Shown here one piece after another: positions 4,742 through 47,617 of a stretch of DNA of 64,000 nt. The notes below the pieces were generated by a model, which worked only from the letters and a program-made list of their open reading frames with translations, searched no databases and was not told the DNA's origin. Source of the DNA: Dictyostelium discoideum (taxonomy: Eukaryota); assembly GCA_000004695.1 (NCBI GenBank), contig CM000151.3, forward strand, positions 2,528,001 to 2,592,000, in the 5' to 3' direction. The first letter of the stretch is position 1, and every line of letters starts with the position of its first letter. The position numbers were made by a program, and so were the translations under genes.

Positions 4742-6357
4742 ATGGTTAGATTATTTAGAAGTGGATCAAACCCAAAAGGTAAATTATAATCTAAAATTTT
4801 TTTTTAATTTTTTTTTCAATTTTTTTTTTTTTTTTTTTTTTTATTATTAACTTTTTTTTTTTTTTTAATTTTTTATTTTTTTAATTATTTAAAGAAATTG
4901 ATATATCACAACCAAATTCATTAGTACATAAAGTTCATGTTGATTTAGATTTAAATTGGAGTTCAGGAGGTGAAACATCATTTGAAATTCAAGAGAAATT
5001 AGGAGAAGGATCATTTGGATCAGTTTATAGAGCAATTCATAAATCATCAAATACATCGATTGCAATTAAAGAATTTGAAATTTTCGAAGCAAATGATGTT
5101 GAACCAATTAGTAAAGAGATTCAAATTCTAAAGAAATGTAATAATCCATATGTTGTTAGTTATTTTGGATCGATAATGTTAAAGAATAAATATTGGATCT
5201 TGATGGATTATTGTTCACTTTCCTCTTTTAATGATATTATGCAATCGATTGGTAAAACTTTTAAAGAGAAAGAGATCTCATTGATTCTTCAACAATCATT
5301 ATTGGGTTTGGTTTATTTACATTCTAAACAAATCATACATCGTGATATTAAATCGGCAAATATTCTATTGGATGAAACTGGTCAAGTGAAAATCGCAGAT
5401 TTTGGCGTCTCTCAACAAATCCAATCCACTTTTTCCAAAGGTTCAATCGCAGGTACGCCCTATTGGATGGCACCTGAAATTCTAAATCAAACCGATTACA
5501 ATAATAAAATCGATGTTTGGTCATTAGGTATAGTTGCCATTGAATTGGCCGATGGTGAACCACCACTTTCCGAGGTTAATCCAATGAGAGCCATGTATAT
5601 GATTGGTAGAAGACCTCCACCAACTTTTAAAGATCCAAAGAAATGGTCACCAGAGTTTGTATCATTCGTTGATAAATGTTTAACTAAAGATATCAATGAA
5701 AGATGGTCACCTTCTCAATTATTAGATCATCCTTTTATTAAAAGTGCAAAACCAGATGCATTAAAAGAATTAACTCAAATGGCTATAAAATTAAAATCAA
5801 AAAAAAGAAAATCAATTGGTCCTTCAGTTTCACCAAAACAACAACCAAATGATAATAATAATAATAATAATAATAATAAACCACAATTTTTAAGTAAATT
5901 ATTAAATAATAACTCAAATAGTAGTAATGATATTGGTGAAACTACTTCTGGTTCTGTAATTTATAAACCAAATGTTTTCAGTGGTTCAATTGATACTGGT
6001 TCAGTCGTAATTCATAATACAATCACTAGTAATAACAATGACTCTGGTTCAGTAGTTTTAAATTCAAATACTGTAATTAATAGATCAAAACCATTACCAC
6101 CACCACCTTCTTATGAATCTGTAATTTTAAATGATAAATTAAAACAACAACAACAACAACAACAACAAAGCAATCAACAAACAACAACAACTACTACTAA
6201 ACAAAATACTATTAAAAATAAATTCAATACAATTAGCAATACTATTAAATGTAATACTATTTTAGTTCAAGATAAAACTTTAGAAATTATTCAAAAGACG
6301 CCAATGAAAAATTTAGATGAAAGAAATCAAAAGTATGTTTTATTAAACTATATATAA
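4742..6357 (+). CDS. STE20-family Ser/Thr kinase, MST/Hippo-like (GCK-II type); 2 exons: 4742..4778, 4895..6357
   Basis: Exon 1 is ATGGTTAGATTATTTAGAAGTGGATCAAACCCAAAAG|gtaaat (MVRLFRSGSNPK, phase 1). A 116-bp AT-rich intron ends …ttatttaaag|. Exon 2 continues in frame: EIDISQP…EKLGEGSFGSVYRAIHK… (G-loop), VAIK-type Lys, HRDIKSANILL, DFG, GTPYWMAPE (STE20 signature). The kinase domain is close to MST1/2, followed by a low-complexity tail. Confidence 0.8.
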
Positions 6358-7389
6358 AAAAAAAAAAAAAAAAAAAAAAACTAATTCCTTTATGTATTCT
6401 TTTTTAATTTTTTTATTATTTAGAATCGTTTTATATTCAACACTTGGTTTAATTTTAGTCTTATCAGTCTTTTTTAAATTCTTTAAATAGATAGTTTAAA
6501 ATTAAGAAATTAGACTTTTTCAAATCTTTTATAAAAACAAACAAAAAACAAAAATAATAAAATATAAACTACTGTAAAAAAAAAAAAAAAAAAAAATAAT
6601 CCCACTCTTTTTTTTTTTTTTTTTTTTTTAATTTATTTTTATCCTTTTTTTTATTTATTTTTATCTTTTTTTTTTATTTTTTTCCTTTTTTTTTTTGATG
6701 CTTTTTTGGGATCCAAAATTATAAAAAACAATAATAAAAAAAAAAAATTTATTATTTAAGAAATAGAAATCTTAATTTATTGAATTCTTAATGAAAATTA
6801 AAATATTTTTTTTTTTCTTAATTATGTAAATTAGATTCATCAATTAATTGTTTCTATTTCTCGAAATTATAATTCAAGTTCGCAATATTTCAATAATAGT
6901 ATTATTAATTATAAAAATAATAAAAATAATAGTAATAATATTAATAATAATAAAAATAAAAAACCAAGCTTTTCAATTCAATAAAAGTGCTATGTTGTAG
7001 TGAAATAGATCAAGAATTCCCAAACGAAGAAACATGAACAATGTGAAGATATTAATCCTTTCCTTTAAATATTTCTAATAGAAATAAATTTAAATTTATT
7101 TTTAACAATAAAAAAAAAAAATTATAAAAAAATTTATTTATTTAATAAAATATAAAAAGGAAAAGAATAAATAAAACAAAAGATTTATTCTTATTTTTTA
7201 TTTTTTTATTTTTTTGATTATTGGAATTTCTTTTTTTATTTTTATTTATTTATTTATTAATTTATTTATTTATTTTTATATAATATTTTCCAACCAATTT
7301 TTTAATATCTTCTTTAAAATTTATTTTTTAACAAGATACTTTCATTTCCTCAATCTGACATATCTTGTTTTAATTAAAAAAAATAATTG

Positions 7390-7425
<36 letters not shown>

Positions 7426-7483
7426 TTTTAAAAGATTTTGAAGCTCAAATTTGAAATTGTTTTATTTTCAAAGAAACTGGTTT

Positions 7484-7520
<37 letters not shown>

Positions 7521-7889
7521 GGGAGGAGACAGGGGGTTTAAAAATTGAAAATAATAATTCTTTTTTTTATATTTTTATTATTTGTTTATACCAAAAAAAA
7601 AAAAAAAAAAAAAAAAAGTTTCACAATTAGAATTACTTTTAATTTTTTTTTTTTTTTTTTATTATTATTATTAATTATTATGGCAATTGAATTCATTTAT
7701 TATTTTTGAGAAAAAAAAAAAAAAAACCAAACTTTTATATTTACTTCTTTTTGAATCTTTCCTATACTACTCTTTTTTCTTTTATTTTTTTTTTTTTACT
7801 TTTAACTTTTTTTTTTCATTTTAATTTTTTATTTTTTTTTTTTATTTTTTATTTTTTTATTTTTTTAATGTTTTATTCTTTTGTTAAAT

Positions 7890-8332
7890 TTATTTGGTTT
7901 CTGGTTGTTTAACTTCTTTTGCATCAGTTTGTTGACCCTTTGCCCAATCTGCAGAGTCAAAATATTTTTTATCCTAAAATAAATAAAAAAAAAAAAAAGT
8001 GAAAGAATACCTGTATTAATATCCAACATATTTAAATAAAAGTAAAAGGGGAGGGATAAAGATTAAAACTGTAATACAAACTCTTTTTGATAAAAGTGTT
8101 GATGGAGTTGGTAATCTTCCATATTTATCAAAAAATTTCTTTTCTTCTTCGGTCATTGGCTATAAAATAATATAAAATAGTTTATTATTAATATAAAATA
8201 ATTTCTATTTCCCTTTATTAAATTTAAATAGGGGAAAGGGGGTGTAAGTTCACAAAAAAAACAATGCACTTATAAAAATAGATTTTTAAAAAAAAAAAAA
8301 AAAAAAAAAATACTTACTTTAGTTTCAGACAT
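7890..8332 (-). CDS. Endosulfine/ARPP-19 (ENSA) family phosphoprotein, 59 aa; 3 exons: 8332..8318, 8159..8082, 7973..7890
   Basis: Not in the ORF track. Minus strand: ATGTCTGAAACTAAA|gtaagt (MSETK). Then ttttatag|CCAATGACC… (PMTEEEKKFFDKYGRLPTPSTLLSKR) with donor |gtttgt. Then ttttag|GATAAAAAATATTTTGACTCTGCAGATTGG… (DKKYFDSADWAKGQQTDAKEVKQPETK*). 'KYFDSADW' corresponds to the conserved ENSA/ARPP-19 'KYFDSGDY' Greatwall-site motif, and the upstream segment to the 'K…KYPxLGxKP…S.FLxKRL' block. Confidence 0.6.
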
Positions 8333-8494
8333 TTTCTAAATTTATATATATATGTGTATTTGTTTAATATTAAATTTCAATAATTATTGATTTATAGGGT
8401 AGGTATAAGGTTGTTGATATTTTTTTTTTTTTTTAAAACTAATTTTGTGGTGTAATACAAATAAAATTTTCAAAAAAAAAAAAAAAAAAATTTT

Positions 8495-34085: not shown

Positions 34086-36867
34086 ATGGGTAAAGGAAGT
34101 GGAGCTCCTTTAAAGGAGAAAGTTTATCCATCTGTTATGTATGGAAATATTAAACCAATTAGAAAACAACCAAAATCATTACCAAAAGAATTAACTATTG
34201 ATCAAATTTTACAATCTCTTCCAAAAGAAGTTTTTGAAACAAGTAATTTTAAATCAGCATGTTCACTTTTAATAACAATCTTATTCATTGGTTTAAGTGC
34301 AACATTCATTACTCTCATGCCATCTTACTTAACCCCAATTGGTTGGATGTTAATGGGTGCCTCAGTTACTGGTGTAAGTAATACAATTATTATTCATTCA
34401 TTTTTTATTATTTCCATTTTCACTTTTTTTTTATTTTTTTTAAACAAAATTTTTTTTTTTTTTTTTTTTCTGAAAGTGACTTGAAATTTTCAAGTGGGAA
34501 AAAAAAAAAACCGTCACAGTTCCAGACTACCAAATTTTTTTTTTCAATCACAATGATTGTTATTTTATTTTTTTTTTGATTACCATCAAAAAAAAAAAAG
34601 CACCCATTTTACAAAAACAAAAAAAAAAAAAAAATAATAATTAAAAATAATTAAAATTTTTTTTTTTTATTTGCATCTTTTTTTTTTTTTTTCCAAAATA
34701 TCTAATCACTAACCCAACAAAACTTTTTTTTTATTTTTTATTTTTTTTTTTTTTTTAATATCTTTTAAAATATGACAACCTCTCACACTAATAGTTAATG
34801 GTAATTGGTAATGATTGTATTCATAAAACTTTTTCAAAGAATCCATTAGTTAATTCAATTATTGGAACAATTGTAATGTTACCATTGTTATATCCATTCC
34901 AATCTTACAAGATTTCAGAAAAGAATAATGCAGAAAAGAAATCGACAGCTGTTTTAAATGGTGAACAATTCAAGATTAATGCACATACCACAACCGAAAG
35001 TACAAATCCAATTAGACAATGGGCAACTGGTAAATTCTTTTGGATTTTATCAATTATTAATTGGTCTGAAAATTATTTCTCAACTAAAAATTTATCAGAT
35101 AAAAAAGATAAAACCAAAGCAATCGTTTCAATTGCAATTGTTTACATTTTTGGATTTATTTTCTTCCCAATGATGTTTAAATTTGTAGGTGTAAGTGGAT
35201 TCCTTAATTATTGGTTCGCACCATGGTTAGTTTTACATTTCTTACTTTCAACTGCTTCATTATTACCATCAATTCCATTTTATGAAGAATTACAAGTTGC
35301 TTCAAAATTAGAAAAATCAAATAATAATAATAACAATAACAAAGGTGATAAGAAATCATCTGAAGTTGAAAAATATTTAGTACATATTACATATCCACAA
35401 TGGTTTGAATTTATTGTTAAAGATATTAATTTTTCATTACCAAGACAAATTGCAGTTTCAATTCCACATTATAATCTAAGAAAAGCTTATAATTCATTTA
35501 AAAAGAGTTGGGGTGAATATATTTATGAATGTACATTTGAAACTGAATTATTTAAAGAATTAATTATCCGTAGTGAAAACTTTTCAAATGAAATTTTCTC
35601 ACCATTTGATTCAGCTCCATTGGTACCAGATCAAGAAAAGAAAGCAGAAGCAACCGCTGAAGCCGTTTCAAATAGTCGTACAAGTCGTACTGTTAAAGAA
35701 TTTTTAAAATCAATCAATTGGTTACATGTTATCATTTTAATTGGTATTCCATTCATTGGTCTCTATGGTCTAATTAATGTAGAGTGTTCATTGAAAACAT
35801 TTATTTGGTCATTTATTTATTATCATTTCACTGGTATGGGTATTACAGCAGGTTATCATAGACTTTGGGCTCATAAGGCTTATAGTGCAGTTTTACCAGT
35901 TCGTATTATCTTGTTGCTATTTGGTGCAGGTGCTGTCGAAGGTTCATGTCGTTGGTGGTCAAGAGATCATCGTGCTCATCATCGTTATCTCGATACTGAT
36001 AAAGATCCATATTCAGCTTCATTGGGTTTCTGGCATTCCCATTTCATTTGGTTAATGTTCAAACAAGATCCAAAGAAAATCGGTAGAGCAAACATTGACG
36101 ACCTTAACGCCGATCCATGGGTTATGTGGCAACATAAACATTACATTAAAATCGCCACTTTTATGGGTCTCGTTTTCCCAACATTGGTAGCTGGTTTAGG
36201 TTGGGGTGATTGGGCTGGTGGTTATTTCTACTCTGGTGTACTTCGTCTCGTTACAGTTCAACATTCCACATTCTTGGTCAATTCATTGGCTCATTATTTA
36301 GGTGACTCTCCATACGATGATGAACATACTCCAAAGGATTCAGTTGTGACTGCTATATTAACATTTGGTGAAGGTTATCATAACTTCCATCATGAATTCC
36401 CAAATGACTATAGAAACGCTTATAAATTCTATCAATATGATCCAACTAAATGGTTGATCTCTGCAATGTATTATTTAGGCTTGGCTTATGATTTGAAAAC
36501 TTTCTCCAAAAATGAAATTGAAAAAGGTATGATTCAAATGCACCAAAAACATTTAGACGCAAAGAAACAATCAATCTATTGGGGTATCAATAAAGAAGAT
36601 TTACCATCAATGACAATCGATGAATTTAATAATTTGGTTGAAAAAGAAAATAAAAAGTTAATGATAATCAACAAAACCGTATTAGATGTCGAATCTTTTG
36701 TTAATGATCACCCAGGTGGTTTAGCTTACATTAAAATGGGTATTGGTAAAGATGCAACTTCAATGTTTACTGGTGAAGTTTATGCTCATTCAAATGCTGC
36801 TAAAAATTTATTATGTCAATTTTCAATTGCTAAAATTGTTGATAATCATGATAAAAAACAACAATAA
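34086..36867 (+). CDS. Tri-domain desaturase fusion: degenerate FAD2-type desaturase domain + Delta9 (stearoyl-CoA) desaturase + cytochrome b5; 2 exons: 34086..34373, 34795..36867
   Basis: Exon 1 (MGKGSGAPLKEK…LPKEVFETSNFKS…PIGWMLMGASVTG) matches the FAD2/Delta12 N-terminus. Donor GGT|gtaagt, a 421-bp intron, acceptor ctaatag|. Exon 2 continues 'LMVIGNDCIHKTFS…YKISEKNNA…PRQIAVSIPHYNLRKAYNSFKKSWGEYIYE', which aligns with FAD2 'IWVIAHECGHHAFS…WKYSHRRHH…[32 protein letters not shown]' but with all three His boxes substituted. Then comes an intact Delta9 desaturase (HRLWAHKAY; RDHRAHHRY; GYHNFHHEFP) and a C-terminal cytochrome b5 (HPGG…). There is no stop codon between the domains. Confidence 0.8.
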
Positions 36868-37765: not shown

Positions 37766-38563
37766 ATGTATATTTCTAAATTTTTACTATTATCATTAAT
37801 TTCAATGATTTCAATTTCTTTAATTAATTCTCATGGGTATGCAATTTATCCAATGGCTCGCCAACAAAAGTAATTATTTATTTTTTCATTTTTTTTTTAT
37901 TCCAATAAAATATCAATTTATTAAATTTTTTTTTTTTTTAAAATAAGATGTCCAAAAGGTAATATTTGGTGGCCAGAGGATGGATCTGGTATTACTGATG
38001 CTGCATGTCGTTCAGCTTTTCAATTTGTAAAAGCAAAAGGAAATAATCCACAATATCAATTTATTCAATCAAATGAATTTTCAGTTTTAATTCCAAATTA
38101 TGCTCAAGGAGCAAGTGCTTTAAAAGCAGCAGTACCAAATTCATTATGTTCAGCATATGCAACTACATCATCAAATGATAAAAGTGGAATGTCAATTGTT
38201 GCACCATGGACACCAACAATTATTCCAACAACTGCAAATGCTGTAAATGTTAGTTTCACTTATAAATTCTGTGCAACTGCTTCTCATAATCCAAATTTCT
38301 GGGAATTCTATGTTAGTAAACCAGGTTTCAACCCAACCACAACTCCATTAACATGGGATCATTTAACATTATTCCAAAGTTTCCCAAATACTGCAAGTGT
38401 TTCAATTAGTGATCCATCATGTTCTTCAACATCTGCTTATATTTTTAATTTAAATATGCCAACTCGTTTCTCAAATGCAATTTTATTAGTGCGTTGGCAA
38501 AGAGTTGACCCAGTTGGTGAGTGTTTTATTAATTGTAGTGATTTTAAATGTGTAGCATAAAAA
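37766..38563 (+). CDS. Secreted lytic polysaccharide monooxygenase-like protein (AA10/CBP21-like histidine-brace fold); 2 exons: 37766..37869, 37948..38563
   Basis: Signal peptide MYISKFLLLSLISMISISLINS, then mature N-terminus 'HGYAIYPMARQQ' (His1). Donor AA|gtaatt, a 78-bp intron, acceptor aaataag|. Exon 2: CPKGNIWW…FCATASHNPNFWEFYVSKPGFNPTTTPLTWDHLTL… parallels CBP21 '[30 protein letters not shown]' (second His of the brace), and '…SNAILLVRWQRVDPVGECFINCSDF' parallels '[26 protein letters not shown]'. Confidence 0.65.

Positions 38564-41064: not shown

Positions 41065-47617
<6,553 letters not shown>

Follow-up and report, generated by a model that had tools for sequence, protein, structure and literature searches.

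A Predicted Single-Domain AA10 LPMO of Dictyostelium discoideum and Its Resemblance to Viral Fusolins

The Locus and Its Gene Model

The window analyzed here, a stretch of 64,000 nucleotides of Dictyostelium discoideum DNA, carries on its forward strand a spliced gene at 37766–38560 in which two exons, separated by a single GT..AG intron, make up a 717-nt coding sequence for a protein of 238 amino acids (Table 1). The preliminary description of this DNA had recognized the gene and had placed its 5′ end correctly, at the ATG at 37766, but the end that it gave, 38563, lies 3 nt past the stop codon, and the intron went unmentioned. Without splicing, the reading frame would run at once into a TAA (caa caa aaG TAA). 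Support for the splice junction, K35|C36, is provided both by an ungapped alignment to the fusolin segment ARQRRC and by complete identity with an annotated protein. The two strings quoted in the preliminary description are both found in the spliced product: HGYAIYP runs from residue 23, and residues 144–162, which include His148, read ATASHNPNFWEFYVSKPGF. The GC content of the coding sequence is 32%, compared with 20.6% for the window.

Table 1. Features of the AA10 locus and neighboring genes, in window coordinates
Feature	Position	Strand	Remarks
ORF, 1896 aa	27090–32780	+	No Pfam match at E ≤ 0.001
Fatty-acid desaturase with C-terminal cytochrome b5 domain	34798–36867	+	Next gene upstream of the LPMO gene; synteny of the two is kept in D. 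purpureum (L004:759-3291)
Exon 1	37766–37869	+	ATG at 37766; predicted signal peptide, residues 1–22 (MYISKFLLLSLISMISISLINS), then 12 full mature codons from His23 and two bases of the Lys35 codon
His23 codon (CAT)	37832–37834	+	Predicted N-terminal copper ligand (amino group and imidazole) after signal-peptide cleavage
Intron	37870–37947	+	Spliceosomal, 78 nt, GT..AG, 7.7% GC, phase 2 inside the Lys35 codon
Exon 2	37948–38560	+	Remainder of the AA10 domain, with Trp42, Ala146, His148, Arg220, Glu226, Phe228, and seven of the eight Cys; TAA stop at 38558–38560
His148 codon (CAT)	38285–38287	+	Predicted second copper ligand, in an A-S-H motif with Ala146 at −2
Cys227 codon	38522–38524	+	Between Glu226 and Phe228
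FNIP-repeat protein, 491 aa	38700–40175	−	Pfam FNIP, E 4.8e-84
ORF, 238 aa	41895–42611	+	No Pfam match at E ≤ 0.001
BIG-type Sec7 GEF	42821–47293		Ordinary amoebozoan neighbor gene
ORF, 206 aa	47884–48504	−	No Pfam match at E ≤ 0.001

The identity of the gene was established by comparison with public genomes. Its product matches DDB_G0273103 of D. discoideum AX4 over the full length at 100% identity, in agreement with the social amoeba that the preliminary description took to be the source, and the same sequence is encoded at a second locus of the AX4 genome, DDB_G0273835; it is present as well in several other assemblies of D. discoideum and of D. citrinum. In UniRef the protein goes by the name “Chitin-binding type-4 domain-containing protein.” That D. 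discoideum possesses an AA10 LPMO gene is stated in a review of 2019 (PMC6690862). Both the gene and its assignment to the family are thus public already, through the reference-genome annotation and that review, and are not new. The homologues of Heterostelium album and Tieghemostelium lacteum bear the NCBI names “enhancing factor precursor” and “fusolin precursor,” so the resemblance to fusolin was also visible to annotators. What is added here is confined to the link to viral fusolin/GP37 through a pair of cysteines, the missing spindle tail, and the ancient vertical inheritance of the gene within Dictyostelia.

The literature searched contained no paper that names DDB_G0273103 or DDB_G0273835 or that characterizes the protein, and no characterized amoebozoan LPMO was found there. 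Full-text searches that combined fusolin with Dictyostelium returned unrelated co-mentions, and in a broader search on gp37, dictyostelids, and chitin binding there was no gp37 paper among the matches listed. Neither gene identifier, and hence no expression record, was found in the supplements of Dictyostelium transcriptome and proteome studies, the text of which may be incomplete. This absence is uninformative, both for that reason and because the duplicated region of AX4 is often dropped in read mapping.

The genes around the LPMO gene, which encode the desaturase, the FNIP-repeat protein, and the Sec7 GEF, provide no functional hint. Tandem copies or a polysaccharide-utilization cluster were considered and rejected: tblastn detects the LPMO gene as a single copy within the window, and its neighbors are the three genes just named. 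The FNIP-repeat gene and the LPMO gene run toward each other, with their 3′ ends facing and the two stop codons only about 140 nt apart.

Family Membership, Active Site, and Cysteines

Assignment to AA10 is based on a family profile, on alignments with proteins of known structure, and on a predicted fold. Pfam PF03067 (LPMO_10, formerly CBM33), which served as a proxy for AA10 family models, aligns from its first to its last position (1–183 of 183) with residues 23–234; the match scores 124.4 bits, where the cut-off is 23 bits, and has an E-value of 1.1e-35. A sequence search of the PDB is headed by four entomopoxvirus fusolins (E 1e-45 to 9e-41, about 38–40% identity), followed by AsLPMO10B (7OKR, E 1e-24) and then by many further AA10s. 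In the alignment with the fusolins (PDB 4x27/4ow5/4yn2), His23 stands opposite the crystallographic His1, and the match continues to the end of the domain. An AlphaFold2 model computed from an alignment of 24 sequences has a mean pLDDT of 84.5 and a pTM of 0.83; pLDDT falls below 50 at residues 1–4 and 8–21, in the leader, which fits a segment that is cleaved off.

Foldseek comparison of the model with the PDB again puts the fusolins on top (TMq 0.81–0.83, rmsd 2.3–2.6 Å, 38% identity). They are followed by AsLPMO10B and then by more than 30 other AA10 chains, CelS2 and CBP21 among them, while AA9 and AA11 structures match weakly, with marginal E-values. Of 40 matches at E ≤ 0.001, the first 38 are AA10 chains and the last two AA9. 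The model thus supports an Ig/fibronectin-III-like β-sandwich fold of the AA10 type. The preliminary description had proposed an LPMO-like protein of this family and had suggested profile searches and structure prediction as checks; the full-profile match, the alignment with fusolin at E 1e-45, and the predicted β-sandwich, with fusolin, AsLPMO10B, CelS2, and CBP21 among its top structural matches, all support that proposal. The comparator it had chosen, CBP21 (SmLPMO10A, PDB 2BEM; Foldseek rank 20), has the same family, fold, and His-brace residues as the amoeba protein, but it is distant (phmmer E 0.15, 16% identity, TMq 0.51, rmsd 6.7 Å) and is not suitable as the nearest reference; the nearest characterized proteins are the viral fusolins.

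The set of residues expected at an AA10 active site is complete: His23, Ala146, His148, Glu226, and Phe228, together with the surface residue Trp42. In an alignment of 24 dictyostelid and Pseudomonas homologues, Ala146, His148, Trp218-Gln219-Arg220, Asp222, Gly225, Glu226, Phe228, Cys231, and Asp233 are invariant, and His23 is kept in every sequence that is not truncated at its N terminus. A histidine is aligned with His23 in 121 of 128 full-domain homologues taken from a library of 1.84 billion proteins. Among the 95 of these that fall outside the dictyostelid and viral clade, His148, Arg220, Glu226, and Phe228 are each present in 93–94, and Ala146 in 48. The second conserved histidine singled out in the preliminary description is indeed His148, with the AA10 alanine at −2, and it lies opposite the histidine of the fusolin sequence PTAIHEP in the sequence alignment. 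In the structure of AsLPMO10B, Phe208 is the axial residue, Glu206 belongs to the second sphere, and Trp46 (Trp20 of fusolin) is the aromatic residue of the L2 loop on the substrate face (PMC9361615); the corresponding residues of the amoeba protein are Phe228, Glu226, and Trp42.

The N-terminal leader has the makings of a signal peptide, with Lys5 in the n-region, a hydrophobic core at residues 6–20 (Kyte–Doolittle means over 9-residue windows up to 2.7), and a c-region L-I-N-S that places Ser at −1 and Ile at −3 relative to His23. All full-length catalytic dictyostelid homologues have a leader of 18–25 residues, then Gly or Ser, and then His-Gly-Tyr. From these heuristics and the conservation among homologues, cleavage at 22|23 is probable and would make His23 residue 1 of the mature protein.

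The protein contains eight cysteines, at positions 36, 55, 102, 143, 193, 227, 231, and 236. Cys36, Cys55, Cys102, and Cys231 are common to essentially all homologues. Cys143 and Cys193 occur together in all 33 members of the clade formed by dictyostelid, viral, and virus-like environmental sequences, versus 1 of 95 other homologues. Cys143 is reported as two residues before Ala146, and the cysteine at or near 193 is on a loop that is absent from most bacterial homologues. Cys227 and Cys236 are extra relative to fusolin.

The first of these extra residues, Cys227, is conserved in nearly all dictyostelid AA10s, and its position is occupied by Gly in 83 of the 95 other homologues and in the viral proteins. 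With it, most dictyostelid sequences have an odd number of cysteines, so that Cys227 may be unpaired, with its thiol close to the copper.

Only five residues follow the GExFxxCxD motif near the C terminus. The protein therefore has neither a CBM nor a tail of the fusolin type, and it should be a soluble single-domain enzyme.

Relation to Fusolin, GP37, and Bacterial AA10s

An exhaustive phmmer search returned 259 cluster representatives at E ≤ 1e-3. After the dictyostelid proteins, the best-scoring representatives are unnamed environmental sequences, the spindolin/fusolin of Heliothis armigera entomopoxvirus, and multidomain LPMOs of gammaproteobacteria such as Simiduia and Gallaecimonas. In a neighbor-joining tree of the 128 full-domain homologues, calculated from Kimura distances, the dictyostelid AA10s form one clade (bootstrap 92) that joins the entomopoxvirus fusolins, the baculovirus GP37/spindle-like proteins, and environmental sequences with a bootstrap of 45, the deeper nodes being unresolved. 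Measured by raw distance, fusolin is no nearer to the query than are some of the multidomain homologues from bacteria. The grouping of dictyostelid with viral proteins is supported independently by the shared Cys143/Cys193 pair, which is a discrete character. We conclude, on the strength of the sequence comparisons, that the dictyostelid AA10s are best placed in the fusolin/GP37 branch of AA10.

Fusolin (spindolin; PDB 4OW5, 4X27, 4YN1, 4YN2) and baculovirus GP37 provide the closest known parallel to the amoeba protein. Fusolin is the best match both in sequence (E 1e-45) and in structure (TMq 0.83, rmsd 2.3 Å), and the two proteins have in common His1, the A-x-H and R-x5-E-x-F motifs, Trp20 in fusolin numbering, and six cysteines including the Cys143/Cys193 pair. 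They differ beyond the catalytic domain, where fusolins and many GP37s continue for about 100–120 residues, with 101–120 counted in fusolins and CfMNPV GP37, and the amoeba protein for five. It is the C-terminal extension of fusolin that drives crystallization of the spindles (PMC8615602). The amoeba protein also departs from fusolin in its two additional cysteines, 227 and 236, and in being encoded not by an insect virus but by a chromosomal gene that has an intron and eukaryotic neighbors.

Bacterial members of the same AA10 subgroup are also similar. AsLPMO10B of Aliivibrio salmonicida (PDB 7OKR; E 1e-24, TMt 0.83) conserves the Glu, Phe, and Trp features, and the bacterial representatives of the fusolin-like gammaproteobacterial AA10s (Pseudomonas, Simiduia, Gallaecimonas) are 33–47% identical to the amoeba protein. 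Unlike it, they have neither the Cys143/Cys193 pair nor the loop that bears Cys193, and many are multidomain proteins of 447–546 residues with chitin-binding modules. The Pseudomonas AA10s have, in addition, an insertion of 20–30 residues that is absent from the amoeba protein.

Those environmental members of the clade that could be placed are on virus-like contigs. Three contigs from Logan, SRR18067410_9355, SRR25394079_24052, and ERR12726524_6989, carry fusolin-like AA10 genes amid densely packed genes that mostly have no Pfam match. On one of them the AA10 gene is beside Baculo_19, and on another it is surrounded by tightly spaced ankyrin, RING, and DNA-ligase genes; the third environmental AA10 is on a contig of 34 kb whose remaining genes have no Pfam matches. 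These contigs probably derive from undescribed large DNA viruses that encode short homologues of fusolin, tail-less or short-tailed.

Proposed Function, Substrate, and Origin

The reading that we favor, with a probability of roughly 0.85, is that the gene encodes a secreted, single-domain, copper-dependent AA10 LPMO of the fusolin/GP37-like subgroup, as the conserved sequence features and the model predict. From the same features we infer a possible course of maturation and catalysis. The 22-residue leader would direct the protein to the ER, where signal peptidase would cut after Ser22. One copper ion would then be bound in a histidine brace formed by His23, through its free amino group and its side chain, and by His148, with Phe228 in the axial position and the second sphere occupied by Ala146 and Glu226; Trp42, in the L2 loop, would lie on a flat substrate-binding face. 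Supplied with a reductant and O2 or H2O2, such a site could break glycosidic bonds oxidatively in a crystalline polysaccharide.

The nature of that polysaccharide can be approached by analogy. Chitin of fungal or yeast prey or competitors is our first guess, at about even odds, and is favored because the nearest characterized relatives, fusolin and AsLPMO10B, are described as chitin-active. D. discoideum is not known to make chitin, and a chitin substrate would therefore be exogenous. The Glu-x-Phe arrangement of the amoeba protein is also found in cellulose-active AA10s such as ScLPMO10C. It is present, too, in the chitin-active AsLPMO10B (PMC9361615).

The main alternative, possible if somewhat unlikely, is that the same enzyme acts instead on the organism's own cellulose and, as development proceeds, remodels the stalk tube, the spore coat, or the slime sheath. 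The AA10 family, which has both cellulose-active and chitin-active members, has been kept and has expanded in those dictyostelids that were sampled, and Dictyostelia build cellulose walls. The model aligns with the cellulose-active CelS2 and ScLPMO10B as well, and the Ser/Thr-rich linkers and hydrophobic C termini of some paralogues (P0006 and P0014) suggest tethering at the cell surface, which would suit such a role. The cellulose-active structures are, however, far more distant (TMq about 0.60, 19–21% identity) than the chitin-active relatives that are closest among characterized proteins, and the Dictyostelium omics supplements, in their possibly incomplete text, yielded no record of developmental expression. 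It is considerably less probable that the protein is not catalytic at all and serves in carbohydrate binding or adhesion, as the older designations “CBM33” and “chitin-binding type-4” would have it, or is an LPMO-like protein that handles copper and is not an oxidase. The UniRef name goes no further than a chitin-binding domain, and two dictyostelid paralogues (P0031 and P0048) have lost brace histidines, so that non-catalytic derivatives do exist in the lineage. The D. discoideum copy, by contrast, retains His23, Ala146, His148, Glu226, and Phe228, all strongly conserved, and CBM33 itself was reclassified as AA10 after activity had been shown.

As to the origin of the gene, the preliminary description had suggested that it might have arrived by horizontal transfer. 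AA10 is mainly bacterial and viral, and the best matches outside the dictyostelids are viral fusolin/GP37 and gammaproteobacterial LPMOs, as would be expected if a bacterium or a large DNA virus had recently donated the gene or had contaminated the assembly. Such a recent source is very improbable: the gene has a spliceosomal intron, a native composition, AT-rich and native in its codons too, and ordinary eukaryotic flanking genes, and homologues in at least five dictyostelid genera form the single clade described above. Orthologues or paralogues are present in D. firmibasis, D. dimigraforme, D. purpureum, D. citrinum, Polysphondylium violaceum, Heterostelium album, Tieghemostelium lacteum, and Acytostelium subglobosum. 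In D. purpureum a fatty-acid desaturase/cytochrome-b5 gene immediately precedes the orthologue, both being on one strand, in the order seen in the window. The clade, the spread of orthologues, and this synteny indicate that the gene is older than the split between the dictyostelid genera sampled, and vertical inheritance within Dictyostelia is thereby shown. What could remain of the earlier suggestion is an ancient transfer that took place before those genera split; a recent arrival is contradicted. The position of the intron was considered as a marker of age and set aside. Gene length equals CDS length in the orthologues of D. purpureum, P. violaceum, and T. lacteum, which are thus intronless; among the species examined, the D. 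discoideum lineage alone has the intron, which as a lineage-specific gain is silent on the origin of the gene.

A broader scenario can be sketched, which we regard as doubtful. The dictyostelid AA10s and the fusolin/GP37 proteins of insect viruses might stem from one transfer between a eukaryote or protist and a large DNA virus, of which the Cys143/Cys193 pair would be the mark, and the amoeba enzyme might be a secreted or phagosomal oxidase that breaks barriers, directed against the walls of prey or competitors. If so, its targets would be fungal chitin and, conceivably, bacterial peptidoglycan, in parallel with the attack of fusolin on the insect peritrophic matrix; in this bacterivorous and yeast-eating amoeba it would serve neither for digestion of biomass nor for remodeling of the organism's own wall. 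Eukaryotic AA10s are rare, and a dictyostelid gene of this family, in a tractable organism and with a duplicate in AX4, offers a handy test of the role of an LPMO in a phagotrophic, cellulose-building protist.

The dictyostelid paralogues include proteins in which the active site has been altered. Polysphondylium violaceum has three tandem AA10 genes, CYY_005015, CYY_005016, and CYY_005017, at 5265–8405 of AJWJ01000190.1. In CYY_005017 (P0031) Arg replaces the N-terminal His, and Lys and Glu replace the active-site Glu and Phe; this protein is probably catalytically dead. DICPUDRAFT_79382 of D. purpureum (P0048) has Asn at both positions of the copper-ligand histidines and Ile where the axial Phe would be, with all of its cysteines kept, and looks like a pseudo-LPMO that has been retained in the genome. 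A non-catalytic binding role is plausible for both, to judge from these substitutions.

Other paralogues differ in their extensions. P0006, P0009, and P0014, from H. album, T. lacteum, and a EukProt sequence, are AA10 proteins with Ser/Thr-rich linkers, an extension that the D. discoideum protein of the window does not have. The linkers of P0006 and P0014 lead into a hydrophobic stretch at the C terminus that may be a GPI signal or a transmembrane anchor, and P0009 has a Cys-rich tail at its end instead. EFA84504 of Heterostelium album (P0026; 896 residues) combines an N-terminal AA10-like domain, part of which is apparently missing, with a long region annotated as “phospholipid-binding protein,” and the fusion is most likely not real but the product of two genes merged in one model.
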